A DNA stretch of 64,000 bases, taken from positions 32,001-96,000 of IMG/VR virus record IMGVR_UViG_3300045988_122718; one strand, 5' to 3'. How positions within the stretch are numbered: the stretch's first letter is position 1; the number at the start of each line of letters is the position of its first letter. The notes beneath the pieces are model-generated. The model had not been told where the DNA came from, searched no databases, and saw only the letters and a program-made list of their open reading frames with translations. This stretch comes from a virus. This document shows positions 2,636 to 40,490 of this stretch, piece by piece. A program made the translations under genes and the position numbers.

Positions 2636-5600
2636 ATGGCCTATATAAATAAAGTTACTGTTAGAGGCAGAACATACAATTTAGAGAATCTAACGGATGG
2701 TACTCACATTGTTAGATTGCCTATTTTAAGTGGAGATGATGTTTTTGTTACAGAAAAGACATTACAAACCGGTGTAAAGGCATCTGAGCTTACTGATGGT
2801 ACTCATACTGTTAGTTTGCCAAAAAATTTAACAAAAGATGATACATTCGTTCTACAAAGTGTACAAGACAAAGTTAATGATAATAAAGTTGATAAGGTAA
2901 GTGGTAAGGGTTTATCAACAAATGACTATACTACCCCAGAAAAGAATAAGCTTTCTGGTATTGAAGATGGAGCGAACAAATATATTCATCCTATTTATAA
3001 CACAAGAGTATCTGGTCTATATAAAATTACAGTTGATAGCACCGGTCATGTTAGTGATGTAAGTGAGGTTACAAAGGACGACATTACTGGTCTTGGCATA
3101 ACTGATGGTACGGATGCAGTTACTCAGGCCAACGCATATACTGATAAGGCTATTTCTGAATATGAACCTTATTCTATTGAAGTTGTAGGCACACTACCAG
3201 AATCTGGTGAAGATAGAACTTTCTATCTTGTTCCTAATGAATCCAAAACTGGTTATACGAAATACTGGTGGATTACCGACAATGGCGAACAAAAGTGGGA
3301 TGAGTTTAAGGGCGCTTCTACTGTAGTTGTGACCGAACTTCCAACAACTGGTGAGAAAGAAACAGATTATATCCTATATTCTGATGCAGGATGTTTTTAC
3401 TACAAATGGATTGACAACGAATGGAAGATGGTTGCGGGAACTGTTGCCCATATTGTAAATGAACTACCACAGACCGGAAACGAATATTCAGATTACTATG
3501 TGAAAAACACCGATGGTTCATATGTACATTATCGTTATATTGACGGTGCATTCTGCATAATTGGTGGAGACACATATAACAAAACACAAGTAGATAATAA
3601 AATTTCAACATTAAAGACTGATATTGATTCAAATACCACAAACATTACTTCTCTAAGCCGCACAGTTGATGGTATCAGACAAGATTTGGATAGTCTTGAT
3701 ACAGAGGGTTATACTTACTACGCTACTTATGGCAATGCTACTCTTGCGACTGGAGACGAAGCAGAAAACGTATTTACACTTTATGAAGTTAAAAATGAAA
3801 AAGAAGAAGTTAAAAGTCAGTTTGTAATTACTGGTGGCGGCGGCGGAGGCACTACAACCACTACTCTTAAGGTTGAGCGTATTACCGAGTCTCCTGTTAT
3901 TGTCACAACAACTGACAAAGTAGAAATAAGCTTCAACTATTCTTCAACAGATAGCGATGGAGAGGCAGTTGATGGTACTTATACTTGGAAACTCGGAAAT
4001 ACCGTTCTATCCACTGGAGCATTAGTTCAGGGTGTTAATACTTTTGACATGACTGAACATGTGAATATTGGCACTCAAAAATTTGTTTTAACAGTTGTAG
4101 ACGCCGCTGGTAGTGTTGCAGTTAAATCTTGGACTGTGCAAAAGGTTGATGTCAGACTTGAATCTTCATTTAGCGACAAGATTGCATATGAAGCTAACAA
4201 GTCTGTGAACTTTACATATACACCATATGGTGCAATAAACAAAACTGTGCATTTTGTTCTCGATGGGGCTGAAATAGGGACTGTTGCTACAAGTTCATCT
4301 GGTACACTACAGTCTTATACACTCCCAGCTCAAGAACACGGAGCACATTTACTTGAGTGTTACATTACTGCAACGATTAATGGAAAGAGCGTCGAAACGG
4401 ATCATATATTTAAAGATATAATTTGGTATGATGAAAATAGTGAGGCCCCCGTCATTGGTTGTGTTTATAGATATGACCACTATGGCAAGGTGGAGGCTAA
4501 GCAGTATAACTCTACAAACATTCCATTCTATGTATTTGATCCAAAGACAGAAACACCAACTATTACGAGAAGTGTTGACGGGAAGGTTATCGCAACTCAA
4601 ACTATGTCTGGCACATCAGATGTTTGGGCGTATAAATCTTCTGATATTGGTGAACATACGCTTACTATTACTTGCAATAGTACAACACTAACGATTGTAA
4701 TGGACATTAAGGAACTTGGCATTACTATTGAGCCAATTACTGCTAATCTCGCATTTGACTTTAACCCAACTGGTCTATCGAACAGTGATGAAGACAGACT
4801 ATGGAAAGACAGTAGCATGAATGTTAATATGACTGTTTCTGACAACTTCGACTGGTCAAATGGTGGGTATCAGATTGATAGTGATGGCAATCAGTATTTC
4901 TGTGTAAAAGCCGGAACAACTGCGACTATTAATTATAACCTATTTGAGAGAGATGCAAGCGCTTATGGTTCTGAATTTAAGTGCATTTTTAAGACTACGA
5001 ATGTTAGAAAAGCAAACGCAACGTTTTTGACTTGTCAAGCAGACTCTACCGTTGTTGGTTTGGAAATGAATGTTCATGAAGCGTATTTGAAGTCTAGTAT
5101 TAAGAGTCTGTATATTCCTTATAGTGAGGAAGATGTTATTGAGTTTGAGTTTAACATTAACTCACTCGATAAAGATAATCCAGACGCAACAGCCGTTATT
5201 ATGAGCTATGAGGACGGTGTTGGTTTAAGACCAATGATTTATGATTCTACTCATAGGTTGTATCAGTACGAGCCTGTCCCTATTACTATTGGCTCTACAG
5301 ATTGTGATGTTCATATTTATCGTATGAAAGCTTATACTTCTGCTCTGACTGATTCTAACATTCTTTCTAACTTTATTGCAGATGCCAGAGATTCTGATGA
5401 AATGATTGCAAGATATAACCGTAATCAGATTTATGATGAAAACAATGCTTTAACTCCTGAATCTGTAGCAAATGCTTGTCCTCAGTTGAGGGTCATTAAG
5501 ATTGAGTGTCCACACTTTACTAATGATAAGAAAGACTATGTTAAGGGAACGAATGTTGAGTGCATTTATAAGGGTGGAGATCCCGTACTAGATAACTGGA

Positions 5601-22506: not shown

Positions 22507-25500
22507 ATGGGTAAAAGAGGTCCTAGCGCACAGTATGCATATGGAATTACCATTGAAGCTGGTAATTATAACGAAGTAATAAATGGCTTTGAAAAAAGAT
22601 TAAAAAATTTAGATAAGGTTACGGCTACTACAACTAAGACTTTTGCGGCTTTAAGTGAAGCAATGAAGTCTGGTAAGCAGGTTGATTTTAGTAAGGCAGA
22701 AGGTCAACTTACTGGTCTTGTTGCAGAAATGGAAGAAGTCGCTAAGTGGAGAGAACAGTTGGCCGGTGGGCAGAAGCTAAGTGATATGTTTGATGGACTT
22801 GACCAAGTAAAACAGGGTTTAGGACAAATCACAAGTCAAATGGATAAGTTTGGCGATAATATTGAGGAAATTTTTAGTATTCTACAAAATGTTCCTCAGA
22901 ATACATCTAAGACATTTGTTGATGTAAGAAAAGTTCTTCAAAAACAAGCTTCTGAAATGAATGCAATCATTAAGGAACTTAATAACCCAACTGAAAAAAC
23001 AGATATTTCTGGATTGAAGAAACAATTATCTAGTCTTGCTACAGATTTTGTAAATGAGTGGAACAAGGCTGCATCTCAAGGTGTTAAGATGGATCAAGTG
23101 GTCGATTTTAAGCCATTTGCAAATATAATAAAAACGGCTATAAATGGTGCAAGAAGCCTTGGCACCGAGTTTAATGATGTTTCAGCGTCTGTAACAGAAG
23201 CTACGAAAAATGTTGTTGCATTATATAATGTCAAACACCCTACTGGTATGTTTAAAGATTTAACTTCTGGATTATCTAGTGTTGAATCACAAGCAAAAAG
23301 GACTGAACAAGCCGCTAGTAAGGCTGTTGCATCTTTTAAGGCTACCATTGGCATTGTTGATAAACTTAATAAGTCTGATATGGGTCTTTCGAAGAATAGT
23401 AAAGAAATGGAAGAGTTTTTGGCAAAACTTCAGAATCCAGAGATTACTGTTAAAATTAATAAGAAAGATCCAGATAATGTTATTGATACATTTTATGCAT
23501 TACAAGATAAAGTTGACGAACTTGCTGGAGGAAGCGTTCTCAATCTCACACAAGATTTTTTTAAAGATATCCCAGTTGAAAAGCTAAAAGAATTGGGCGA
23601 CGCTTTGCAAAATATTATTGCAATAGGAAATCATAAAGATTATAAAAAGATACTTAATTTTGGTGATGATGTATTTGGTACAGGTCATTTTAGTGGCCAA
23701 ATAAAAGGATATTCATCAGATTTAGAACAAGTTATGACAGAACTTGAATCAAGATTGAATGAAGCCAAACAATCTGTCCAAGATTTATCAAATACCCTAC
23801 AACAAATGGTTGAAAAAGCAGGCTTAAAGGAAATAAAGGTTGAGCTTGGAATAAAAGACGATATTAATTATTATGTTGAAAAGATTAATAGTGTCATTAC
23901 TGATATAGAAAAACAGGCCAATAGAATAAAAAAGATTCCTGTAACATTAGCATTTGATGATAAAAAAGACGATAAAAATAAAGAAAACGCAGAAGCATTA
24001 AAAAATAAGTTGACCGATCTTAAGGAGGCAATACATAAATCAAGAACCGAAATTGAAGGGGATTTAAGAGGCATTAAGGAAGCCGTAAATGGAATTTTTA
24101 AATCAAGTTCTAATTCTGCTGCAGAAAACTTATTTAATAGTATTCAAAATTACTTTGATGTTTCTGATGGTATAGATGTTTATATTAATGATGAAGCCTT
24201 AATTAAGAAGATCGAAGACGTTTTAACTGGTCATCAATTTAATATAAATATCAATCCAAATGTTAATGGCAATACAATTCCAATAAATGGAAGCTTTGTT
24301 GGGGTTGGAGGCAAAAGTGGCAATAGTTCAGTCGCACCCGTTGTTCCTGTTGCTCAAACTTCTGAATCTCAAGCTTTACAAGAAAAAGCGCTTAAACATA
24401 CTGCGGAGTCAAGTGAAAAAGCAGCAGAACATAATGATACAACATCTTTATACATCGAAAAGGCATCTGGAGAATTCCTAAAATTTATTCAGAGTTTTAA
24501 TAGATCGTTTAATACTGCAAATAAAAAATTGACAGATGCAAACGTTACGATAGCCAATGGCGGTCAAGTTGATGAAAGAAGACTTAGGTCTATGACCACT
24601 AGAGTATCCAATCTTTCTCCAATGTATGAGTATTTGTCTAAATTATTTAATCAAACAGATTTAGCCAAAATTTCAAAAAACGATATCAAAAATATAATTA
24701 CAGAACTTATTAAGAAAAATGAAGGTAAATCTGGTTTCAAAGGAGAAACATTTTTAGATGATATTTTAAGTCAGGGTAAGATTGGCAAGAGTCTTACTGC
24801 AAAATTAACAACATTTGCTGGCAAAGATAAAACCGTTGATATGCTTTTTAAATCACTTGGCCTAGAATCAATAGATAAAGTTATTGCCGGACGTAGAGAT
24901 GATTTATCAAAGGATAATGGACAGAATCTGCTAAAATATTATCAAAAATACGGAAAAATTGGAGACCTAGTAGACCAAATTGTTGGATTTATGTATGCAG
25001 ATAAAAAATCTGGAATGGATAAGGTTGATATAGATTCGACTGTTGGTTCTCTCGAAGACTCTTTGAAGAAATTAAAGGATGCATTTCCTGATATTAGTTC
25101 AAAAGCAAAGACAAAAGAACAAAAAATATCAGTAAAAACAATAGAAGAAACGATTGATAGTTTAACTACTTTAATAGGTGATTATAAATCAACATTATCT
25201 GAAACTGGTGGAATTCCAAGTGAAGAAAATATTTATACACATATACAAAATGGGTTTTCCAGATTATTTGAAACTATTTCTAATGATGAAAAGGATTCTA
25301 TTATAAAATCCTTTTATGGGAAAGATCCAACAAAAGATGCAATTAAGTCTGAATATATTTCATCTCTCAAGGATGTTATTCAAACAGTTTCTGGAAATGA
25401 TGAAACTGCAGGAGTAGTAAATGTTTTAACATCGTGGCTAGATAGGCTTGATTTAAGAAACCAGGTTTTAATTTCTGTAGAAGATTTACAAAAACAATTG

Positions 25501-28500
25501 ATTAATTCAAAAGTTTCTAGAAGTATAGATGGAAGAAGAGAAGTTTCTGTACGAAGCCTAGTTAATGATGTTCTTAAACAATTAGATGCAGATATTGTAT
25601 ATGAAACAAAGAATGGCACAGAAAAAACAGAAAGCGTTCATTATGGTCTTGGAAGAGGAAATAGTTCTAGAAAAAAGAGAGATTTGTTAAACAAGGTTAC
25701 GAGTGATGGTATTTATATATCTCATAAAACTCAATTTTATGATAAAAATAACAAGAGACCAACTCAGGCACAATCTCGTGTCGATTTAAATGGTTTAACT
25801 AAAAATAGCAATATAGATTGGGAAAAAAGAATAGCAGAATCTGAGAAAGTTATTCAAGAAAAAACGAAAGCACTTGAAGAAGCTAAAAAAGTTAGAGATG
25901 AAAAGTTGGCGGACATAGCAAAGAGAGAAGAGTCTGTAGGTACTACTCTTGACAAGGCTCAAAAAGAATTAGAAGCTGCAAAAGCCAATTTAGATGAAGT
26001 TACATATTCTGCATCAAGCCTAGTAGATTCTAGTGCAATTTCTTCTTTAAATGAAGAATATAAGAAGCAGACAAAAATATATGATTCTATGAAGAATTAT
26101 GCACAGAAAAATATTGCTTCTAGTGATTTAATGAAAGATAAAGACATCTCATTAGAGTTTAAAACTTTAATGAGCCAAAAAGAACAAATTATCCAAAGAA
26201 TGTCTCTTATAAAAAAAGAGGTATTTTCTTTTAAAACAATTGAGGAGATGTCTCCTGAAAGATTAGATGCTGTTATATCTCAAAACGAACAAGAAGAAGC
26301 TAAACTTAATGATGAAATTTCAAGAATTAGCAATGAGTTATCTGAAATATCTAATGCAGATAAAGAATCTTTAATTAAATCATTAAATAGTCAGATTGAG
26401 CAAAAGAAACAAGAAAGAAAAATATATGCAGATAGACTAAAAGATTTGAAAAATGCATCTGATAATGGAGATACTGAAGCACAAAAAGAGTCCGAGGATT
26501 TGAAAAAAAAGATATCTGCATTAAATGAACAAATTAATAGTTTATCAAATAAATCGGATATTGTGAACAAAAATGGTTCACCTTTAAAACAGGCATTGTC
26601 TGAGAAACAAAAAGAACTTAATATCATACAAGGGTATTTAAAGAAACAAAGAGAAGTAAGAAAAAAAGGAAAAGTTTCTTCTGATTTGGAATCACGATAT
26701 AAAGAAGAAGAACAAAATTTACAGAATGTAACAACAGAAATTAATACATTAATTGATAAACAAGCAGATGAAATTAATTCTATTTCCATAAATAAAATGA
26801 AGGAGATTGCTTCTCAGTATAAAAAAATTAAGAAGACATTGCCAGGTTTAAACAAAGAACTTAAAAAGCAAAAAAAAGGAACTATTGAATATGATAAAAT
26901 ATGGGAGCAAATTAACTCAATAAAGACATATATGAATTCAATGTTTGATGAATTTGAAAGCATTGGAAGACAAATCGGTCTTGACGATGATAGTATGCAC
27001 TCAATATTTTCTAGCTCTAAAAAATCTTATTTCAAGAAACAAAAAGTAGGCACGTCTATTACAGAAAAATATAAAGAAGAAATAAGAAAGAAGAAACAGG
27101 ATTATGGCTTCGCAAGTAGTGATAAAAAATCCTTAGAAGAAGAAAGAACTGAAGCAGAAAAAATAATTGCCGTAATAGAAAGAGAAATTAAGGCGGAAAA
27201 AAGAAGAAAAGAACTAGCACAAGCTAATATAGAATATACAAAGAAAAAAGCCGAAGAATATGATATTATACAAGAAATTTCTAAATTAGAAAACAATCCG
27301 GCTTCTGTTGATTTGTTAAATCAGAAAAGACAAGAATTATCTGTCATCGGAGAAGAATTAAAAAATATACAGCTTAAGATTATAGATCTTGGTGGGTCTA
27401 AACCAATTGGGGCGCTTGACGATACTCTTGCACCGGAACAGAAAAAAGTAGAAGTATTAAAAACGATTAAGATTCTTCAAGAAAAAATAATAAATAATCA
27501 GGCAAGAATAGATAGTGCAGAACAATCTATTAAAACTACTAAGGCATTAACGGTTGATAAAAATAATGGCGGTATTGTTAGTTTATCAGGAAGAAGAACA
27601 GCAAAAACCCAAGAGATAATGAGTGGGTTTATAGGAGCTTATACTGCGACAGATGATTATAAGAGTAAGGTTGCTGCAGAAAGAGATAAATTTGAAAGTA
27701 GTCTTTCCAATGTATATAGAACTATGTCTTCTAATATTGCTAAGAAACTTACTTCTCTTATTGAAGAGAATATGGGAAGTGTTGTTGAAAAGAAATATGG
27801 AGAAAATGGAGTAAAAGCTCATAAACAATCTTTTGATTTAGCAATGCAGAATCTAGTCGAGAAAACAGAAGAAAGACTGTCAAAAAGAATTAATAAAATA
27901 TATGATGAATATTTTGAATATGTTGCGAGTATAGAGTCTTCTGATTTATCAGAGACAGATAAGAAAAAAAAGATAGATATAGCAACTGCAGAAATGAAGT
28001 CGAAAACAAGTGCAGATTCGCAAAAAAGAACATTTAATGAGATTTTTAACAATGAGGCTTCTAAATTTTTGGATAATTACTATAAATATTTATCTTGGCT
28101 TATTGAACAAACAACAGGGGAAAGTATTGATGTTAAAAGTTTAAGAAAAGAGCAAGGTAATATAAAGAGTTCTGACATAACAAAAATATATGACCAATAT
28201 TCCGCCGAAGCTGAATCCACGAGAGCAAATTTAGAAAAAAAACAAAAAGAAAATATAGATGCAATTTTAAGAGATTATATTAAATCTATTAAAAAAGTAG
28301 AGCCTATATTAGATGGCATTAATCCAGATTTACCTGATGATATTATATTTGAAGATGCTATTGGAAATCGTGTTAATGTAACTAAAAACGAGAGAAATCG
28401 TAATGAGTCTGCTAAACAAAGGATTAAGGCTTTAAAGGGAGAAAATGCTTCATACATAAAGAAAATCCAAGATTGGATGTCACAATATGATATTTCTGAT

Positions 28501-31500
28501 TTAGAATTAGAAATGATAGATGATGCTATTAAACTCGCTATGGATCCAACAGATAAAAATTTACAAATCCTTTTTGGCAAATTTGATCCGAATAAAGTTG
28601 ACACTACTCCAATTGAAGAAGCTACTACAAGTATTGCCAATCAGACTATACAAGCAGCGGCTGAAACTGCTAAGAAGGCTGCTGATAGTAAACTTTCTGC
28701 AACAATAAATGCCACATCTATAGAACAATCCAAAGAAAAACAGACTGTTGTTGACAATAACACACTTCAAATAGAACAACAAGTTACTGCTGAAAAGCAA
28801 AAGCAAACAGCAGAAGAAGTTAAGCAGACTGCTGAACAACAGAAACAAGTAGAATTAAGTAATGCAGAAAGGCTAAAACTCGCTAAAAAGGAACTTCAAA
28901 AACGTTTGGATGCTGCTAAGAGTATACAAGATGGCACAACGTTAAAAAGCAATAAAGTTATTGTTACGCATTCTGATGAATCAAAAAAAGGTGTAAAGTA
29001 CTCATTAGACGAAAATATTGAATCAATAGATGAATTTGCCGAAGGAGTATGGAAACTGACAGAGGCGTTTAAGGCTGGAACAGACGCTGCAAATATTGAA
29101 TATGGTTTTGCGACACAAAATGGTAAGCGTATTCAGTTGGCAAAAGGCGATAATGATTCTGTAGACTTTACAAGATTCCATGGAGATATTGATTCTTTAA
29201 CTCACTCACATTCGTACACTAAAGGTGTAAACAATATGGTCTTCTCATTGGCGGATATTGACCAATTAGAGACATTGGGTACTAGAAATAATCTAAAAAA
29301 ATATAATTTGATTTACGACAATGAAATGATGTCGTTAAATCTTGGCAAAAACAGCCAAGAAGCAGCAGAAGCTATTGCAGATTGTTATCCACAAATTAAT
29401 GATGTTGTAATGGCTATGCTATCAAGGGCCGATGGTAATAGTATCCCCGCTGAAAATACAGAAGAAATGGCTCGTATACTTAATGGGTATATACAAAGAG
29501 TCCTTGAGGATGCTGGCGGTCGTTTATCGGTTGTTAATTCCAAAGGTGAAAATGTCACTTCTAAATATTCTATTACCGATGATGAGTATAACAAATTTAA
29601 TAATGTTCTTGCCAAATTCCAGAGTTATTATGACAATAATTTTGGTTCAGTCAGTAAATCTGATTATGTATCAGTAATTAGACAGTATTTGTCAGAAGAG
29701 TTCGGTAAAGAATTCATGGCAAATATTACAAGTAAGAGCAATGCTAATCCTCATGGTGGACTTTATACAGAATTTTCAGCAATTCCAGAATACGACGATG
29801 AAGACAAAAAGATGCTAGACTATGCAGAACAAGTTACTTTATATAGTAAAAAAATTGTTGCTGCAGAAAAGGCTTTTGTTGAATCTCTTCAAAAGATGTC
29901 CAACGAAGACCTTATGTCATTCATTAATCAAGCCGAGGAAACACTTGGAGTAAAGAAGGAGCCAGAAGTTAAGCCTACTTTAACTAAGGCACAAATTGCT
30001 GCTTTAAATCCAGATGATACTTCTGTTTTACAAAAGTCTGTCATTAAACAATTTTCAAAGGCACGTAATTGGAACGAGAATAATGTTGGAAATATTGAGG
30101 AGAAGTTAGGAGCAGACAACAAAGCTCTGATTGCATATAAGACGCAATTTGAAGAATTAGCAAAAATTGCTCTTGACCTAAAGACAAAGGGTGAAGCTGG
30201 TACTATCATAACCAAGGATGATATTTCTCAGTTAGATGAGGCTATTGCTAAGACTAAAGAATTACAATCCGAACTTACAAAAGAAGCTCAATTTAAACAG
30301 ATGAAAGATGCTGGTTTGATTGTAAGTGGTAAAACAAAAATAAAGTCTACTGATAGCTACAGCGAACGCAAAGACATAATGTCTCAATATGCCAAAAAGT
30401 ATGCTACTCAAAATAAGAGTGAATATCAATTTGATCAATACGATTTTATTAATGATAAGATATTCTTTAACATGATTGATAGTGCGGGCCAGGTAACTAA
30501 AGTTATTATGGGCTGGAGTGAAGCATTTAATTCTGCATATATTCAATCTTCAAAGCTGCAAGGTTCTTTAGATAAAATTACACAAGAGGTTTACAAGACA
30601 GATGAGGCAATTAAAGCAGGAGAAGAATATGGTTTCTTCCAAGAACAAAGTGAAGGAGTAAAAGCTTACAAAGATGCTTTAGCAGAATACGAAGCACAAG
30701 TAAAAGCTGTTGCTAAGAGTTCCCAAAAAGATTTAGCACAAAACTTTGAAGCGTTACATACGGCACAAGAAAAAGTAATAAATGCTGGTAAGGATTTATT
30801 AGACAAACAAAAGGATGCCTACGGATTCAATAACGCTCAGAAGGTCATTGGTAGAACTGGAGATGTCGATGCTGTTTTGCAGAATTATAGAGATCAAGGC
30901 ATAAATGTTAATGACATTGAACTTGTTCGTAATTATAACGATGCAATGGGCGATTTAAACAAAAAAATTGAAGAACTGAAGAAAAACGGTAAACTTTGGG
31001 ATGCCAATGAACAACCTGGACTAAAGCTTTTAGCTGATCGTGCTATCGAAGCAGAAAAAGCACTATTAAAAGCAGATGAAGCACAAAGACAGTTAAACGG
31101 AGAAGTAATTAAAGGAAAAAATGCAAAATTCTTTGAGGGCATTGATCCTAATAATGTAGATCAAGTAAAACAGGCAATGGAGCAATATGCTAGGTCTATT
31201 AATGGTGTAGATGCTCAAAGTATTAAATGGAGTGAAGACCAAAAGACTCTTTCTTATAGTGTTAGAACTGGTAAACGCGAAGTTTCTGACTTTACAATTG
31301 GAGTAAAAGAACTTACAAATGAGTTCTATGAGGCAAGAACTGGTACTAGGGCTGTTAAAACAGGAATGGAAGAATTCCTTGGTAGTATTGGTGACAAGTT
31401 CAAAGAAGTTGGTCGTTATCTATTATCCTTCGGTAGTTTTTATCGTGTATGGGGTGAAATTCAAAAGGGTGTAACTTATGTTAGAGAGATAGATTCTGCT

Positions 31501-31642
31501 TTAACGGAACTGAAGAAAGTTACTGATGAGACCGATGCAACATATGCACAATTTTTAAAAACAATGTCTAAAACCGGTGCCGAGGTTGGAGCCACAGTGA
31601 AAGATTTAACAAATATGGCTGCAAACTGGGCGCGCCTAGGGT
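22507..31642 (+). CDS. tail tape measure protein, exon 1 (giant coiled-coil N-terminal part)
   Basis: RBS GAGGTGA lies upstream. About 3045 codons are K/E/Q-rich and coiled-coil-like. The exon ends in ...EVGATVKDLTNMAANWARLG, which is the start of the TP901-family TMP core motif. The proposed 5' splice site follows U31642. The unspliced frame stops 13 codons later at 31680. Confidence 0.7.
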
Positions 31643-32862
31643 CGATTATAAAATCAGCCCCTTTATGTGGTAACACATAAATGAAAAGTTGGCTTTTATC
31701 GGGAAATCCCCAGAGATGGGCAATTCCGAGGACAAGACTAAATATTTAAATTATATTTTACAATACAAAATTAATGAAAGGAGGAATATTAATTGACTAA
31801 TGAAGAAATAATTGAGAAACAATTTGGACGATGGAGTGTATTAGATGTTGTTCCAAAATATAAAAACAATAAAACATATTGTAAATGTCAATGTTCATGT
31901 GATAAACATACAATAAAATTTGTTTATAAAAACTCATTATTAAAAGGCGAATCTCAATCGTGTGGATGTTTAAGCAAAGAACTAGCACAGAAGCGCTATA
32001 GGTCTAATATAGTTGGCGATAGGTTTGGAAATCTTGTTGTTAAAGAAATGTTATATAACTATAGGAATGGAAAAACATATTGTTTATGCGATTGTGATTG
32101 TGGCAAAGAACATATTTGTTCCTTATCTAATTTATCTACTGGTCATACGACTTCATGTGGTTGCATGAAATCTGAAAAAAATTGGAATGGTAGACGTACA
32201 AATTTAGTGGGGAATAGATTTGGTATGTTAGTTGTTGATGAGATGTTGTATGGATATATAAACAAGCAAACATGTTGTAAATGTACTTGTGATTGTGGGA
32301 ATACATCAATTGTATATATGAGTAATTTGTTGCAAGGCTTTACTCATTCATGCGGATGTAGCGAACATAATTCTGTTGGAGAGCAATTAATTAAAAGTAT
32401 ATTGGATAAAAATGAAATTAAATATATTTATAATTATAGGTTTGATGATTGTAGAAATGTTCTTCCACTTCCATTTGACTTTTATCTTCATGAATATAAT
32501 ACTTGTATAGAATATGATGGTATTCAACATTTTGAGCCAATTGAATATTTTGGTGGAGAATATGCACTTCAACAACGACAAATGAATGATAATATTAAAA
32601 CACAGTATTGTATTGATAATGATATCAAATTAATACGATTGCCATATACATTGTCAGAAGATGAAATAATAAATATAATTTTAAATATTTGGAATCCGTA
32701 ACGAGTAAGTGTTTTATATGGTGACATATAATTCCACGCCAACCACCCTATTATATAGGGTGATGATGTACTCTGTTCTGCACATATAATCTAAAAATGA
32801 AAGTGCAGAGGCAAGGAGAAATCACTTGCCCCTTTTACTTTATGTAAAAGAGTAACAAATAG
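31643..32862 (+). mobile_element. putative group I intron (1220 nt) interrupting the tape measure gene
   Basis: - Splice sites: the exon ends in U and the intron ends in G32862.
- P1-like pairing: GGGU (31639-42) with GCCC (31656-59).
- P2-like: 8-bp hairpin with a GUAA loop (31662-31681).
- P3-like: long-range pairing GUUGGC (31688-93) with GCCAAC (32738-43).
- P4/P5-like: CGGGA (31700-04) pairs with UUCCG (31724-28) around a GAGA-capped hairpin (31709-20).
- 3' hairpins at 32744-62, 32810-30 and 32832-50.
- Joining restores ...ARLG-Y-SIEEAGELAKSTAVLLNV in frame.
- P7 could not be assigned by eye. Confidence 0.62.
31793..32701 (+). CDS. intron-encoded homing endonuclease candidate: three zinc-ribbon repeats plus a PD-(D/E)XK (Vsr/DUF559-like) nuclease domain
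   Basis: AAAGGAGGA lies 7 nt upstream of TTG at 31793. There are three about 50-aa repeats (G.RFG.L.V.......K..C.C.CDCG.......S.L..G...SCGC). The C-terminus has LPFDFYL...CIEYDGIQHF...DNIKTQYC...IKLIRLPY, typical of Vsr-like endonucleases. Confidence 0.65.
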   Translation: MTNEEIIEKQFGRWSVLDVVPKYKNNKTYCKCQCSCDKHTIKFVYKNSLLKGESQSCGCLSKELAQKRYRSNIVGDRFGNLVVKEMLYNYRNGKTYCLCDCDCGKEHICSLSNLSTGHTTSCGCMKSEKNWNGRRTNLVGNRFGMLVVDEMLYGYINKQTCCKCTCDCGNTSIVYMSNLLQGFTHSCGCSEHNSVGEQLIKSILDKNEIKYIYNYRFDDCRNVLPLPFDFYLHEYNTCIEYDGIQHFEPIEYFGGEYALQQRQMNDNIKTQYCIDNDIKLIRLPYTLSEDEIINIILNIWNP

Positions 32863-35800
32863 ATAGTATTGAAGAGGCCGGTGAACTCGCTAAGAGTACA
32901 GCGGTCTTGCTGAATGTTTCAGAATTCGAGAGTGCTGATGAAGCGTCAGAAGCGTTAATCAGTACCATGCAAGCTTATGGATACGCTGCAGAAGATAGTA
33001 TGCATGTTGTTGATATACTTAACGAAATAGGAAACAATTTTGCGATTTCTAGTGACGGATTGGCAACAGCTCTACAAGATTCAGCAAGTTCCTTAATGGC
33101 TGCGGGGAATTCGTTAGAACAAAGTGTAGCAATGGTAGCAGCTGCCAACAAAGTGCTTCAGGATCCTAATTCCGTAGGAAGTGCGTTGCGTACAATTTCG
33201 CTAAGAATTAGAGGAACTAGCGTAAAAGTTTTAGAAGAAATGGGTGAGGAAACTGATGGCGTTATCGAGAGCGTCAGTAAACTCCAAGCCAAAGTCAAAG
33301 GTCTAAGTGGAGTCGATATCCTAACCGACACTGGTGCTTATAAAGATACATACACAATTATCAAAGAAATTGGTCAAGTATGGGAGCAAATGAACGACAT
33401 TGACCGTGCTGCGTTACTTGAGTTGTTAGCAGGTAAGAATCGTTCGAATGCAATGGCAGCCCTACTAACTAACATGGAAGACCTTGAGGGTGCATACGAA
33501 AGTGCAATGGAAGCACAAGGTTCAGCAGAGGCCGAGAACAAAAAGTACATGAATAGTATTCAAGGTAGAATTGATCAATTTACTAATGCTTTGCAAACTA
33601 TGTGGAAAAATGCAATTGATTCTAATTTTGTAAAGTTTATTGTTAGTGTAGGTACTGGATTAGTAAAAGTTGTTAATTGGCTCGGAATGATACCAACCAT
33701 ACTTGGCACAATAGCCGGAGCTATGTCTGCAATTAAAGGACAGAATCTTTTTGTTAACTTAACTGGAAATGGAAAGTCTGGGATTATAACTGAGTTAATT
33801 CAAAAGGTTAAAGAAGGCATACCCGCTATAAGAGAATTTAATTCAATTCAAGGCGTAGATAATCAAGCCAAATTTTTAAATAGTTTAAAAGAAACTAATC
33901 CCGAACTTTCAAATTATATTACAAAGGTTATGTCGGCCTCTGCTGTAACAACCGAAAATGGAGTTGCTACAAATATAGCAAGTGTATCTCAAAAGAGATA
34001 TATAGGAAGTTTAGTTGCAGCGAAAGTGGCTTCAATAGGGTTAAAGGTTGCAACAGTTGCACTAAATGCCGCACTAACAATTGGCATTAGTTTATTGATT
34101 TCTGGAGCTATATCCGCTATATCTAAAGTAATCAATGGTGTTAAAGAGGCAAAAGAAGAAACAAAGAGGTTGACAGAAGAATTGAAGCAGCAACAAGCCG
34201 AAATAAAATCTAATATTTCTTCGTTGGAGTCATTAAAAGATGAATTTGATAAATTATCAAAGGGTGTAGACGAGTATGGCAATAATATTTCTTTGTCAAC
34301 AGAAGAATATGCAAAGTATAAATCAATAGTTGAGCAAATATTTGGGTATACTCCTACTTTAATTAGTGGATATGATAAAGAAGGAAATGCTATTGCTAAT
34401 AAAAATAGCCTCATTGAAAAATCTATAGAGCTACTAAAGGAAGAAAGAAAACAAAAGCTTTTAGAACTTGTTACAGATGATAAGCTTAAGGTGGCGTATG
34501 ACTCAGCAAAGGAAAATCATGATAAGGCAAAAAAAAAGCTTAAAAATGTAAATGTCCCATCTACATTAGCATATAGCGGTGTTAAGATTGATGATAATGG
34601 CAAAGAACATAGTGGATATGTAAATCAAATTGATAAGTATATTGAAGATGTAATTGGCGTAGAAAAAAGTGTGTGGGAGTCTCTTACTGAATATATAGCT
34701 AGAAATTCTGATGCCGTAAGAAAGAATATAGGGAAGATTATTGAGCGCTCTGGCCAAACAAAAGATGGATGGAAGGGTTTGAACGATAAACAACAAGCAG
34801 AACTTTTAAACTATTTGAACAATGTTTTATCTGGTGTGAGAGAAACAGATGCTGCGTGGGATAGTTTTATTCAGACATTGCAGCTTGTTCCACAAATATC
34901 TACTTATTATGATAAATTATCAGATTCACAGAAGAGCTTCATATCATCCTATATTAATGGGCTTGGTGATTTGAGTAATAAAACAGAAGCAGAAATTAAT
35001 AATATAAAAACCAGTATTTTATCTTTAACAAATGCAATCGGAAGTGACAAAGAGGCACAGTCTTTAATTGACCAATTATTTTCTATTGATTCAAATCTTT
35101 CTGCAAAAGAATATTCTGACAAAATATCTGAAATTTTTAATAAGCTTGTTGAAAAAGGAATAATTTCAAACGACAACAAACAAAAGTTTATAGAACAACT
35201 GTTCCCAGATTTGAAAGATATCGAAACTATGCAAGAAGATGTCAAAAAGAAAATAAAAGATGATCAACAAGATTTAGTAAATAGCTTAAATGTTCAAGAT
35301 TTAAAAATTGCATATTCAATAGATGCCAGTGATCTTTCATTTGATGAATTAAAGAAAAAAATTCAAGAAGTAAAAGTTGCTACTATTGGCGATTTTGATA
35401 TTTCTAACTATTCTGATTCAATTTCGAGTCTAAGTGAAAATATTGGTGTTCTCCAAGCCGCCCTTGAAAAATTGAATAGTGGCTCGTTTACTATGGACGA
35501 TTATGTCAAACTAATTAAGGACTTCCCAAAACTTGCAAAAGGTGTTGATGTTAGTTCTAAGAGTTTCAAGGGGTTAACTTCTAATCTAGTAAGAGCAATA
35601 AAGGCATCCCCAAAGAGCATGGTTAAGGACTTAAAAGCGTTAAAGTTACAATTAATGCAAACTGGTAGGTCTACTTCTGATATTGACCAGCTTATTTATT
35701 CCTTGGAACATATGCCAGAAAATGCTCTTGATAGTATGATTACCAAATATGCTACACTTGCAGATAATATAACTGAAGCTACTGAGGCTCAAAATGAACT

Positions 35801-38800
35801 AAAAGCCGCTATGGAAGAAAATCCAAATGAGGGATTTGAAACACGTGGCGAAGCTATGGATTATATGAAAGAGGCTATGAGTCGTGGAGAAATTGGTAGT
35901 GAATCTAACCTTTGGAATGTCGCAGAAAAATATGGATTTACTTTTGATTCTGCAAAATCAATAAATGAAAATGCTGATGCATTAGCTAAGTTCATTGCAA
36001 CACGTGAAAAGTGGTTTAAGCAGGATGATGATGGTAATTATACATATGAAGGAACAGAGGACTTCATCAAAAAAGTAGATGCGGCTGTTGCTTCTATGCC
36101 AGAGCTTCAAGAACTTATGAAGTGGGATTATAACGAAAGTACTGGGGTTCTTGATTTTGACTTTAAGAATAAAGATTGGGATCAAATTGTTAAGTATTTA
36201 AGTACATGTGAAGGCTTAATCGGATTGACATCTGATGAATGGGCGGACATGCTAGTTCAGGTCGGTCAGTATTTTAATATTGATTGGTCAAATTATAATG
36301 ATGAATTAGAATACTTAAAGAAAATAACAACTGAAGATATGGATAATAAGACCAAAGTAGAAAAATATGGTTCTGCTATGCAGGAATATTTTGGCAAGGA
36401 TTCTTCTATAGACTTGGCTAATCGCCCAATGATTAGCAGTTCAAAGATGAATACAAAGGGATGGGATATAGAAGACGGTAGTTATGCAACTGTACTTTCT
36501 AGTGCTTATTCTAATGAAGGGGGAACTGTTGCCATAACTGTAACACCAATTCTTCCAGATGGAGAAGTTTTAACAGAGGATGAACTAACAAAATATGCTA
36601 CAGAAATTGTAAACGGCGCAGACCCAGTAACATATGAATTCGAAGTCAATGGTAAGACTTATACTGGAGAAGACATTATTCTAGCAAAGCATAATGGTAA
36701 GAACCCAATAGAGGAAGCAAAAGAATATGGTAAAGCACTGCATGAAGCACAAGAAGAATATGATAAACTAAGAGACACTCTCAACATCAACACTACAATT
36801 GACGAAAAGGGTATTAATGGTCTATCTGAAATTAAAGAAATTCAAGGTGCAATCCAGAAGAATGCAGATGGTACTACTATAATTGACGAGCAGGCATTCA
36901 GAAAAGCACTAACGAGTGCCGAATACACAGAAGATCAAATTGATTTAATTATTGATAAAATTAAATACTTAAATAAAGAAGCTTTTGCTTCTGACACATT
37001 TAATATTGGCAAGATACTTGACAAAGAAACTGGCTCTGGAATTGATGGATTGTTAGAAATTAAGGAACTACAAGACGCAATTGAAAAAGATGCAAATACC
37101 GGGTTTACAGTTATTGATACGGACATGTTTACTTCTGTTCTTTCTGAGGCTGGATATACAAAAGCTCAAATTGATGAACTTATCCAAAAAATTCAAGAAT
37201 ATGAAAATGTTGTTTCTGTGGCTGGGAATACAGATCCACTTGGACTTAGTGGTGCAAATTTAAGTATTGATACATTAAAAGCATCTCTTAGTACTTTAGG
37301 TGTGTTTTTTGAAGACACTCTTGGTGACTGGTTTGATGGAAAAAGAGATCTTGTAATTAATGTTCCAAATTTAGTTTCTACACTTAAAGAAAAGGGTTGG
37401 TCTGAAGAAGCAATAAGAAGTTATTGTGAACAGCTATCTAAAGCCAACATTGAAGGATTCAATATTAAAGTCAATTCTCAAGAAATAGATGAAGCATTGG
37501 CAAAATCAGATGATGTTCCTGAAGAAAAAACGACAAACTATGAAGTAACCGGAAATGGTGCTACTACTCTTGATGGAATAGAAGATACATGGTCAAATGT
37601 TACAAAGGATAAAACAACGAATTATACCATTAATGAGACAACGGTAAAGAAAACTGTAGATGATAGTCCTAAGTGGTATAAACCATGGACCTGGTTTGCA
37701 GATGGAACTGCAAATGCTCAAGGGAATTGGGGTGCAGAACGAACAGAAACATCTCTTGTTGGTGAGTTAGGCCCAGAACTTCGTGTACGTGGAAGTCGTT
37801 GGGAAATGCTCGGTGAAAACGGGGCAGAATTTACTGATGTTAAAAAGGGCGATATTATATTCAACCATAAACAAACAGAAGAATTGTTGAAGAATGGGCA
37901 TATTACTGGTCGTGGTAAAGCGTATGCCAATGGAACAGCTTATGCTGCTGGTGACGGCACTTTTTCTAGATATAATTTTAGTGGCAATGGTGGATATACG
38001 AAGTACGATGTAAATAATAGCATAGTTGATTCGTTTGGTAATGCTGCTAGTTCAGTATCTGACGCTGCCGATGATATTTCTGATGCCGCTGATAAATTCG
38101 AAGAAGTATTCGACTGGTTTGAAGTTCTTCTAGAAGAAATCGAAGACAATATCAGCTTAATGAATGCCAAGCTAGAAAATGCAGTTGGTATAAGTGCAAA
38201 GAAAGGTATTTATTCTGAAATTCTAAATACAGAACAATTCAAGTTACAAGAATTATATGAGGGTGTCAAACTATATTCCGATTATGCCAATAAGCTTCTT
38301 GCTAAAGTTCCAGACCAGTATAAAGAAATGGCTAAAAATGGCGCGGTCGCTATCACAGACTTCCTTGGTGAAGCAAACGAAGAAGTTGTAGACTCAATTA
38401 ACAACTATCGTGAGTGGGCAAAGAAGGTATCCGACCTTAATCAGCAATTAGAAGAAACAAAGAAGACTATTGCCGATACTCATGTAGAAATACAGAATAT
38501 GCTTAAAGATGAATATGATAATCGTATATCTTTAATTACTTCTGTAAACGACCGTATACAAGATACAATAGACTTACTCGATGAAGAAGGCAAACGTTCT
38601 TCTGCTGTAATGTATGAAGAAATGATAAAAAATAGTACAAAACAATTATCAGAACTTCAAAGCAAACGTGCAGAAATGCAGAGAGCATTAGACGAAGCCG
38701 TGAGAAGCGGAGACGTAGCTAGAGAAAGCTCACAATGGTACGAGATGGTCAATGCAATCAATGATGTCGATAGTGAAATTAATGATTGTAGAATTGACCT

Positions 38801-40490
38801 TGAAAGTTTCCAAAACTCTATCAACCAGCTTCATTGGGATAACTTTGAAAAGTTCATTGATGCCATTGACAATGTTGGCAACGAAATTTCCAATCTAGGA
38901 GACCTAATCGACGAAGAAGACATTGTTGATGAAGTCGGTAATTGGACAGATAAAGGTATCACTGCACTTGGTTTGTATGCTCAAGAGATGGAACGTGCCA
39001 AATACAGAGCAGAACAGTATGGCAAAGAGATTGAGTATCTAAACCAAGAATATGCCGCTGGAAAGTATAGCGAAGATGAATATCTTGAGAAACTACAAGA
39101 ATTACGAGACGGCCAATGGGATAGCATTAAATCTTATGAGGCTGCAAAAAAGGCTATTGTTGATTTAAATAAAACTCGTATTGAGGCTATAAAAAATGGT
39201 ATTCAGAAAGAAATAGACGCTTATTCGGAACTTATTGACAAGAAGAAGGAAGAACTTAGCTTACAGAAAGAGTCACATGACTTCCAGAAGCAAGTAGCTG
39301 AACAGCAAAAAAATATTGCAAATATTCAAAAACAATTGGCTGCAATGGCCGGAGATAATTCTGCGTCTGCAATTGCTAGGAAAAAACAATTAGAAGCAGA
39401 ACTTGCCGCAGCACAAGAAGAACTCGATGAACTATATTATAATCATAGTGTTGAGAAGCAGCAAGAAGCACTTGATAAATCCTTAGAGAATTATCAGGAC
39501 AATAAGCAAGACGAAATGGACGCTCTTGACGAGTCTCTCAAGAACGAAGAACAAATCATTGCCGATAGTTATGCCACTATTACGGCAAATACGGAATCTG
39601 TAGCACAAACATTATCTGATATAGCAAGTCAGTATGGGATTACCCTATCTGATTCTGTTATGCAGCCTTGGCTAGATGGTGCTAACGCCATTGGTACTTA
39701 TCAAGAGCAGTTAGACACCTCTATGAGTTCTTTCACTCAGCAACTAGAGGCTCTTAAGCAGATGTATGCCGACTTACAAAATCAGGCTGATAGTGCTGGT
39801 AAGAGTATGGTTGATGCGATAAATGGTAGCAAGTCTAAAACAGAAGGTGCAACATATACGCCACCAATTCCATCACAACCAAGTACCCCATCAAAGCCAT
39901 CAAAACCATCTGCTCCATCTACTGGTTCGTCCGTTACAGTGAAAAAATCTGCAACACGCTTTTCAAGAGATGGTGGTAATGGTACTAGAATGCAGTCATG
40001 GGTCCCTGGTTCAACATTTACTGTTTATCAGGTTAGTGGTTCAGAAGTTCTAATTGGAAGAAATGGTCAATATACTGGATGGGTGCGTCTATCTGATATT
40101 GAAGGATATGCAAAGGGTACTAAAGAAATTCAAAATAACCAATTAGCAATGCTAGACGAACTTGGAGACGAGTTGGTTTTACATGCCGGTAAGAATGGCA
40201 GGTTAGAATATCTAACTAAGGGTACATCTGTTGTTCCAGCAGATATTACAAGCAACTTAATGAAGCTTGGCTCCTTAGACCCGAAGGATATTCTTGAAAG
40301 AAATAGACCTTCTATTGGTGCTCCACATGTTATTGATAATAGTATAGAGTTAAAAATGGAATTTGGCAGTCTTGTACATGTTGATACTGTTTCAAACGAT
40401 ACATTGCCATACTTGCAAAAGATGGTCAGAAATGAGTTTGATAATTGCATGAAACACGTAAATCAAGGGCTAAAGAAATTTGTTCGTTAA
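32863..40490 (+). CDS. tail tape measure protein, exon 2 (TMP core, TM segments, coiled coils, SH3b-like domain)
   Basis: The frame is open from 32856. It contains the canonical TP901-type core (LLNVSEFESADEASEALISTMQAYGYAAEDSMHVVDILNEIGNNFAISSDGLATALQDSASSL...ALRTISLRIRG) and hydrophobic segments. Conserved GELGPELRVRG...G and DELGDELVLHAG motifs are present. A Pro/Ser linker precedes an SH3b-like VTVKKSATRFSRDGG...GWVRLSDIEGY. Confidence 0.8.

Follow-up and report, generated by a model that had tools for sequence, protein, structure and literature searches.

Within a 64,000-nucleotide (nt) stretch of viral DNA (positions 32,001 to 96,000 of IMG/VR record IMGVR_UViG_3300045988_122718; hereafter the window), a tape-measure gene is interrupted by a 1220-nt insert that contains a gene of its own. 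A preliminary description, made from the letters of the sequence, had read the insert as a group I-like intron carrying an unusual endonuclease. All features of the window discussed here lie on its plus strand. Exon 1 of the tape-measure gene, delimited by the list of open reading frames (ORFs) and the spliced translation, occupies 22507 to 31642 and comprises codons 1–3045 and the first base of a Tyr codon. Exon 2, for which intron-less homologues provided additional support, occupies 32863 to 40490. Between them, at 31643 to 32862, lies the insert, which we assign to the group I introns on the basis of frame restoration, family profiles, covariation and Rfam matches to ORF-less homologues. 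It carries a homing endonuclease gene of 302 amino acids (aa) at 31793 to 32701, which begins with TTG and is preceded by a Shine-Dalgarno sequence (GGAGG, 31780 to 31784) 8 nt upstream of the start. The related locus L016 has the same arrangement.

Without splicing, a 3057-codon ORF enters the insert by 12 codons and a 2527-codon ORF begins 15 codons past it. Deletion of exactly positions 31643–32862 (1220 nt) gave a single frame of 5587 aa with no internal stops, in which the junction translates as ...TNMAANWARLG-Y-SIEEAGELAKS... and the Tyr codon is divided T|AT. Exon 1 ends in ...CCTAGGGT, with T at 31642, and the expected ligated exon junction is ...CCTAGGGT|ATAGTATTG...; from the last exon 1 bases it reads ...CTAGGGT|ATAGTATT.... 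The junction falls inside the Pfam domain PhageMin_Tail (PF10145, E 1.6e-24), which agrees with the tape-measure gene named as host in the preliminary description. A 339-aa probe spanning the junction matched 147 phage records by tblastn, 132 of which cover at least 80% of the probe in one place, and the spliced protein aligned, ungapped across the junction, with the tape-measure proteins of two phages that lack the intron, Brevibacillus phage Sundance and Enterocloster phage PMBT24. In viral contigs, a degenerate DNA pattern written for the uninterrupted junction had no match; a protein-guided scan later found many relatives there, 74–93% identical, in which a 176-codon region is contiguous. 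In 19 of the 19 relatives inspected the junction is contiguous as NMAANWARLGYSIQEAGELAKS, and the protein at this point reads NMAA(N/S)WARLGYSI(Q/K/E)EAG.... Because homologous phages carry the junction uninterrupted, the halves are normally one gene, which answers an objection raised with the preliminary description, that they might be separate genes; the two tape-measure halves of the window are one gene, not two.

Megablast of window positions 1–22000 against GenBank phages identified no relative. The relatives of the phage are IMG/VR contigs of 146–170 kb, from uncultured phages. The host gene itself is exceptionally long: to our knowledge, its 5587-aa product exceeds the ~5000-aa tape-measure proteins of long-tailed Thermus phages. 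A tape-measure protein determines tail length as a single chain, and at ~1.5 Å per residue the predicted tail length for 5587 aa would be about 0.8 µm.

A blastn search with the 5′ non-coding part of the insert matched an unannotated stretch of Microcystis phage MaeS, where an endonuclease ORF again separates the parts of a tape-measure gene. By eye, the window and MaeS introns share a P4–P5 block, the motif AAUCCGUAACGA at the ORF end, a GA(A/U)GAU(A/G)UA(G/C)UCUG block and an AGUAACA...G tail. Three helices differ between them by compensatory change: P1 (GGGU/GCCC in the window and GAGGU/GCCUC in MaeS), P3 (GUUGGC/GCCAAC and CUUGGC/GCCAAG) and P7 (GAGUA/UACUC and GACUA/UAGUC). MaeS was the only GenBank phage found by blastn to have this intron core. 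Scans with the exact P4–P5–P4′ pattern returned 20 viral and 58 metagenomic loci, mostly true relatives; a looser scan of genome contigs, with the pattern relaxed to 18 bases, gave almost entirely chance matches, L100 being the only family member among them. From these relatives we built a MAFFT alignment of 27 distinct members, with the P6 insert trimmed, and we refer below to its individual base-pair positions in individual sequences as cells.

The RNA structure of the window's intron could be assigned from P1 to its 3′ end. The 5′ strand of P1 (GGGU, 31639 to 31642) ends in the splice-site U31642, which pairs with G31657 of the internal guide sequence GCCC(C) (31657 to 31661); the sequence and the minimum free-energy (MFE) fold both place this helix, and across the family its pairing changes with the insertion site. 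P2 (31662 to 31681) forms a hairpin of 8 bp capped by a GUAA tetraloop (31670–73); compensatory changes are seen in 8 of its 8 pairs, with 94% of cells paired. The 5′ strand of P3 (GUUGGC, 31688 to 31693) reaches across P4–P6 and the ORF to its partner GCCAAC at 32738 to 32743, itself placed by covariation (5 of 6 pairs compensatory, 100% of cells paired). P4 (31699 to 31729) pairs UCGGGA (31699–704) with UUCCGA (31724–29), is invariant in 27 of 27 sequences and served as the search pattern. Within it, P5 joins CCCA (31709–12) to UGGG (31717–20) around a GAGA loop (31713–16), 3 of its 3 aligned pairs covary, and the joining segments J4/5 and J5/4 are A-rich. P6 pairs GGA (31730 to 31732) with UCC (32695–97); it is predicted by both RNAalifold and the MFE fold and, being invariant in the 27 sequences, is uninformative for covariation. 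The ORF loop is closed by P6a, a 21-bp stem according to RNAduplex and the MFE fold, whose strands lie at 31738 to 31758 and 32671–32692. The 3′ strands of P6a and P6 (together 32671 to 32697) are inside the C-terminal codons of the ORF, the last codons and stop codon of which overlap P6a′, P6′ and J6/7.

On the 3′ side of the ORF, P7 pairs GAGUA (32703 to 32707) with UACUC (32769–73) and forms a pseudoknot with P3 (3 of 5 pairs compensatory, 96% of cells paired). An extra 6-bp hairpin with a GUGA loop (32715 to 32730), of the P7.1/P7.2 type, was found between P7 and P3′ in the alignment and the MFE fold. All 4 of its inner modelled pairs covary, yet only 76% of its cells are paired in the MAFFT alignment, and it is absent from some members; this hairpin provisionally puts the intron with the phage-type introns of subgroup IA. 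In the P8 hairpin (CACCCUA/UAGGGUG, 32744 to 32762), 5 of 5 modelled pairs covary. It is followed by J8/7 (AUGAUG) and the 3′ strand of P7 (32763 to 32773), placed by covariation and by the Rfam alignment of the homologue L018; through L018, the window's J8/7–P7 sequence AUGAUGUACUC aligns with the Rfam group I consensus AAGAUAUAGUC, guanosine-binding site included, and these columns are conserved in the family alignment. The 3′ peripheral helices (32778 to 32850) are P9 (32778–83/32803–08), P9.1 (32810–16/32823–30) and P9.2 (32832–38/32844–50), as given by covariation in P9 and P9.1 and by the MFE fold. The P9.1 loop AGAAAU (window 32817–32822, alignment columns 362–367) and a bulged A after its closing pair are nearly invariant in the family, which suggests a tertiary contact. 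The intron ends in the tail AGUAACAAAUAG (32851 to 32862) with terminal G32862, within an AGUAAYA...G pattern conserved across the family. The intron hallmarks listed in the preliminary description (the 5′ exon U, GGGU/GCCC, the terminal G, the GUAA and GAGA hairpins and three stable 3′ hairpins) were thus all found where it had put them, and its assignments of P1, P2, P3, P4 and P5 were correct: its P/Q-like pair is P4, its GUUGGC/GCCAAC pairing across the ORF is P3, with GCCAAC at exactly 32738–43, and the ORF that it looped out of P6 emerges more precisely from the P6a stem.

The family as a whole supports this fold. Run unaided on the 27 sequences, RNAalifold recovered P2, the long-range P3, P4, P5, P6, P8 and P9, with 25 of 37 predicted pairs compensatory. 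The P7 pseudoknot, the P7–P3′ hairpin and P9.1 were added to this structure before pairs were counted. In the resulting group I core, 92.9% of 1343 cells are standard pairs, against 30–40% when the 3′ partners are slid by 1–3 columns; 38 of the 52 core pairs have changed on both sides, and the covariation score is 0.467, against 0.05–0.10 with slid partners. Covariation of the core over the 27 members means that the RNA fold is under selection. Every one of the 52 modelled pairs is standard in the window sequence itself, and the MFE fold of its ORF-less construct contains P1, P2, P3, P4, P5, P6, the 21-bp P6a, the extra hairpin, P8, P9, P9.1 and P9.2. When a profile was made for each intron half with the window and its close relative L011 left out, the only matches in the window were at 31653–31735 (E 1.1e-21) and 32691–32834 (E 2.4e-34).

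We examined the intron-encoded protein using PHROGs, CapR matches to its homologues, AlphaFold models and Foldseek. The ORF matches PHROG families 559, 9084 and 7140 (homing or intron-encoded nucleases) and has more than 7175 homologues at E ≤ 1e-5 in a large protein database, many with three or four N-terminal repeats. The protein has three CapR-like Cys-rich repeats (about aa 10–59, 77–124 and 142–189) and a Vsr-like, EDxHD-type nuclease domain (aa ~190–302) with the motif DFY(L)...EYDGIQH...D..K. The window ORF gave no Pfam match to CapR at E ≤ 1, solely a sub-threshold DUF5889, and an NCBIfam search of it returned nothing. Three homologues 45–71% identical to it (P0015, P0016 and P0041) match Pfam CapR (PF21817) over the third repeat at 28.8–45.2 bits, with a cut-off of 24.2, and 44 homologues show little or no variation in the Cys columns of all three repeats. 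The same 44 sequences have D229, E240, D266 and K269 without exception, and E197, D242 and H246 almost without exception. The full-length AlphaFold model (predicted local distance difference test score (pLDDT) 85) consists of three beta-hairpin/strand/helix repeats followed by an alpha/beta domain. For the nuclease domain modelled alone (pLDDT 93.5), the best Foldseek match is 3r3p_B, that is, I-Bth0305I (probability 1.00, E 2.9e-3, TM 0.63/0.71), followed by Vsr (1cw0_A, 1vsr); the full-length model gave the same matches more weakly. On these models the nuclease domain has a Vsr-like catalytic fold. E197, D229, H246 and D266, with E240, D242 and K269 beside them, are candidate EDxHD motif residues, putatively equivalent to those of I-Bth0305I. 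A Klebsiella phage Muenster protein deposited as 'homing endonuclease EDxHD' shares 53% identity with the domain (E 1e-32); its depositors note an HHpred match to 3R3P_A at 97%. The preliminary description had given the ORF its own ribosome-binding site, a TTG start, and zinc-ribbon repeats fused to a Vsr-like PD-(D/E)XK nuclease, and each of these features holds. A promoter and terminator scan of 31500–33000 found no enrichment over shuffles, and we claim no internal promoter.

The C-terminus of the protein is encoded by the ribozyme core (window 32690–32707), where 'NP-stop' is read from AAUCCGUAA. Many homologues end in NP-stop or in NPVTTT..., and NPVTTT (for example, in P0084 and P0091) is a read-through of AAUCC(N)GUAACGACUAC, that is, of P6′/J6/7/P7. 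Since homologue C-termini translate the ribozyme core, the endonuclease family appears to be habitually resident in this intron core. All family endonucleases inspected at the C-terminus end in a recognizable Vsr-like motif, and their N-terminal regions vary between arrays of three or four CapR modules, other zinc ribbons and unrelated sequence. L011 (6016–7284) has a near-identical ribozyme at the same site as the window; its nuclease is 57% identical to the window's and its N-terminal ~200 residues are unrelated, a difference that, in sequence, looks like a swap of the DNA-binding module. The L011 contig carries a second intron of the family.

Nine family members were analysed for their insertion sites, and all nine lie in tape-measure genes; seven give an open PhageMin_Tail frame on splicing. 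For L005 and L009 no open frame was found across the joined 480-nt window, and L005 has a second intron just downstream. There are at least five insertion sites: ARLG|Y (window and L011), VGD|G (L004, L016 and L100), NEV|DND (MaeS), NNFG|T (L003) and SLAG|T (L015). L005 and L145 are at the window's ARLG site by exon sequence. At each site the guide sequence complements the local exon (GGGU/GCCC, GAGGU/GCCUC, UCGGU/GCCGA, GGGAU/GUCCU and CAGGU/GCCUG); across the family P1 comprises 4–5 contiguous bp, or as many as 7 bp when L004 is judged by eye, and individually these helices are not significant. ORF-containing and ORF-less introns occur at one site (L016 and L020 versus L004, L012 and L018), and the ORF-less relatives have a short hairpin at the P6a position. 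In MaeS (L001, MT362618, 2963–4275) the tape-measure gene is annotated as separate 'hypothetical protein' coding sequences, the intron and its Vsr-like endonuclease gene are unannotated, and the predicted spliced junction is ...VVNKLNE-V-DNDYAISTAQ....

The intron is polymorphic among close relatives of the window's phage (85–93% identical), present in some alleles and missing from others, and several relatives have sister introns at other tape-measure sites (L206, L208 and L209, ~3050–4245; L237, L238 and L253, ~3003–3256; L216, ~3101–3228; L225, ~3870–4007; L247, 2924–3059). The tape-measure gene is an intron hot spot in this phage lineage. This polymorphism, the sister introns and the paired ORF-containing and ORF-less versions are classical marks of intron mobility. 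We compared window positions 31613–31642/32863–32892 with intron-less alleles of the same site (L202–L215, L217–L219 and L254, about 2645–2705 in each; the 60-bp site of L202 is ATATGGCTGCGAACTGGGCACGACTTGGTTATTCTATCCAAGAGGCCGGAGAACTTGCTA). The junction codons are GGG T|AT AGT/AAC in the intron-bearing window and L011, and mostly GG(T/A) T|A(T/C) TCN or ACA in the intron-less alleles. These sequence differences would fit co-conversion, exon adaptation to P1 or cleavage-site immunity, and together with the presence/absence polymorphism they suggest recent mobility. Further elements were seen in related loci. Three Rfam group I matches on the minus strand of L142 (4623–4839, 4946–5258 and 5386–5616; 56.5, 38.1 and 53.5 bits) lie within ~1 kb and appear to be three introns packed into one tape-measure stretch. 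L018 (2155–2536) and L004 (2066–2447, minus strand) contain, farther downstream in the same gene, another group I intron that belongs to a different type (Rfam 25.3 bits, E 0.006–0.014) and that in L004 probably interrupts the gene after ...FNEVG; L016 is without it. In L010, a RAGATH-18 RNA (RF03064; 6556–6618, 61.9 bits, above the gathering score) sits ~2 kb downstream from the 5′ segment of an intron of this family, one that has a large 3′ insertion.

Taken together, we hold it very probable that 31643–32862 is a mobile group I intron with a homing endonuclease gene, situated in the PhageMin_Tail region of the tape-measure gene. An assembly artefact was ruled out by the independent contig L011, which has the same arrangement. 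Several results weigh against our interpretation. The Rfam group I model (RF00028, Intron_gpI), the check proposed in the preliminary description, gave no match to the window at its gathering score, nor to 31500–33000 at E ≤ 10; the MaeS locus gave nothing in Rfam either. P1 is only 4 bp long and is not significant alone (16 of 200 shuffles equal it), and a search for a P10 pairing beside the guide sequence found none that is convincing. P4 and P6 are invariant and therefore provide no covariation evidence, and the use of P4 as search bait biases the family towards P4. None of 500 shuffles attained the observed pairing and covariation values, a control that overstates significance for related sequences in a MAFFT alignment; the slid-partner control is fairer. 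For the protein, HMMER searches of the Protein Data Bank (PDB) with the ORF, the 44-sequence profile and a nuclease-domain profile found no relative, and the EDxHD link rests on fold similarity and the depositors' HHpred note. The Rfam result has a ready explanation in the family. RF00028, with a gathering score of 50 bits, matches ORF-less members over its full-model span: L142 4623–4839 at 56.5 bits, above threshold, L004 at 34.7 and L018 at 34.2, and the alignment of L018 agrees with the P1–P9 assignment made here. The window's P6 insert (ORF and leader) is 961 nt long. As the ORF-less members do match, the miss on the window is likely due to this insert and the extra hairpin. Other, weak Rfam matches of the window (rli38, GP20-a and others) are chance matches. 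By the sequence of its core, the insert is a group I intron.

The alternative that survives best accepts the ribozyme and questions the homing. The endonuclease may no longer be homing-active, being inactive, a maturase or a CapR-like regulator, and the intron may be inherited only vertically. The homing cycle predicts frequent endonuclease decay, ORF-less derivatives exist in the family, and CapR, which binds DNA, is itself a domesticated relative of homing endonucleases (PMC8096241). We consider this unlikely: the ORF is intact at 302 aa, D229, E240, D242, H246, D266 and K269 are all present, and the polymorphism and differing flanking codons described above suggest recent mobility.

Less probable still, and very unlikely, is a split gene without splicing, in which insertion of an endonuclease gene divided the tape-measure gene, the halves are translated apart and either assemble or only one is used, and the RNA is a decayed relic. 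Essential phage genes can be split by free-standing homing endonuclease genes, as in Aeh1 nrdA/mobE; exon 2 has a possible TTG start at 32907; and the Rfam miss on the window's insert would fit a relic. Against a relic, however, all 52 core pairs are intact in the window and the core covaries in the 27 members, and against a split gene, deletion of exactly 1220 nt restores both the frame and a gap-free alignment to intron-less alleles. Used as separate ORFs, exon 1 would acquire an unrelated 12-residue tail and exon 2 would lack 15 conserved residues, whereas a tape-measure protein works as one chain. Finally, an intein, a group II intron or a translational bypass (hop) could each interrupt a phage gene yet leave its product intact, but the likelihood of any of them is negligible: the exon-1 frame stops at 31678–80, 12 codons into the insert, with the ORF in another frame; the insert lacks a reverse transcriptase, a Rfam group II match and GUGYG...AY ends; 1220 nt is far beyond known hops; and the structure found is positively group I.

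On our reading as a mobile group I intron, the tape-measure pre-mRNA would fold with the U·G pair of P1 at the splice site, a P4–P6 stack and the P3–P8/P7 pseudoknot. External guanosine would attack after U31642, the freed exon end would then attack after G32862, and the ligated exons would encode ...ANWARLG-Y-SIEEAG... and hence the full-length tape-measure protein. The endonuclease would be translated from its gene in the P6a loop by way of its own ribosome-binding site and TTG; its three Cys-rich zinc-finger repeats would bind DNA and its Vsr-like (EDxHD-type) domain would cut. In a mixed infection the enzyme would cleave intron-less tape-measure alleles near the ARLG|Y site, and recombinational repair from an intron-bearing genome would copy the intron and some flanking exon into the cut allele. 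Self-splicing, the activity of the endonuclease and homing are our inferences from what is established for group I introns and their homing. We also put forward, tentatively and as a possibility that we rate somewhat below even, that this is an intron lineage specialized for tape-measure genes and retargeted by joint change of the guide sequence and the N-terminal DNA-binding array, with the Vsr-like nuclease kept constant. It would spread among many PhageMin_Tail sites, the guide sequence determining the splice-site context and the array determining where cleavage occurs. This idea is based on the homologous cores at five or more sites, on the constant nuclease motif beside variable N-termini and on the shared nuclease but unrelated N-terminal halves of the window and L011 at one site.

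Classical phage group I introns include those of T4 td, nrdB and sunY, Twort orf142 and the SPO1 DNA polymerase gene, with ORFs in peripheral loops. Like them, the window's intron has a core of ~250–310 nt, ends in G, pairs U with G at the 5′ splice site, carries P7.1/P7.2-type insertions and loops out an ORF that is served by a ribosome-binding site of its own. It differs from them in host gene and in endonuclease class, theirs being GIY-YIG or HNH, and in that core elements (P6a′, P6′ and J6/7) supply the 3′ end of its ORF. The preliminary description considered tape-measure introns unusual, which does not stand: such introns have been described at several sites since 2008 (PMC2504315), and the tape-measure gene has been called a 'frequently interrupted gene' (PMC10448857). 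In Bacillus cereus-group prophages, the group I introns TMP-IVS1, TMP-IVS2 and TMP-IVS3 (IA1/IA2) occupy three tape-measure sites (Tourasse & Kolstø 2008, PMC2504315); these related introns at different sites are retargeted via P1 and the guide sequence, and occur with or without a complete endonuclease gene. The pattern in the window's family is alike, with at least five sites, a site-adapted guide sequence and ORF-plus/ORF-minus pairs, whereas its hosts are uncultured phages with no megablast relative among GenBank phages. In Vibrio phage ICP1, splicing of a tape-measure intron was shown by RNA sequencing and reverse transcription PCR (Barth 2023, PMC10448857).

The endonuclease combines parts that are each known. 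I-Bth0305I, the EDxHD prototype, comes from a group I intron in the recA gene of Bacillus phage 0305phi8-36 (Taylor et al. 2011, PMC3239194; PDB 3R3P). Like the window's enzyme, it is encoded by a phage group I intron and has a C-terminal Vsr-like catalytic domain and a modular N-terminal DNA-binding region. Its N-terminus is NUMOD2/helix-turn-helix and its ORF lies in P5, whereas the window has three Cys-rich CapR-like repeats and an ORF in P6a, and the two nucleases share no sequence similarity detectable by HMMER. CapR-type zinc-finger DNA-binding modules are repeated and shuffled among phage homing endonucleases (Netter 2021, PMC8096241; Barth 2023, PMC10448857). As in the window, the CapR-array T5orf172 enzymes place repeated Cys-rich modules ahead of the nuclease domain, and the tape-measure gene is a frequent target; the nuclease partner there is T5orf172 (GIY-YIG-like) or HNH-3, and here it is Vsr-like. 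In the literature compared, we found no account of a CapR-like repeat array combined with a Vsr-like nuclease. The preliminary description had also called the endonuclease architecture uncommon. We cannot uphold this, as the EDxHD family has an enzyme of a phage group I intron as its defining member, CapR modules are known and the homologues number more than 7175.

The window's intron is a mobile element of an ordinary kind, with no new mechanism. It is modestly new as a member of an intron subfamily hardly represented in cultured phages, MaeS being the sole one found, with its intron unannotated; the combination of CapR-like array and Vsr-like nuclease and the great length of the host gene are modest novelties as well. 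For annotation, two large ORFs with a 'hypothetical' gene between them become one spliced tape-measure gene with an intron-encoded endonuclease, and the same applies to MaeS. The Rfam group I model misses the ORF-bearing members of this subfamily, and the 27-sequence alignment could seed a better one. These results add to the evidence that mobile introns have a hot spot in the conserved core of the tape-measure gene, and they document an abundant, unstudied endonuclease architecture, a Cys-rich repeat array joined to a Vsr-like nuclease, with more than 7000 homologues. If the proposed retargeting is true, this CapR-array and Vsr-like architecture would be an uncharacterized, naturally modular class of homing endonuclease.

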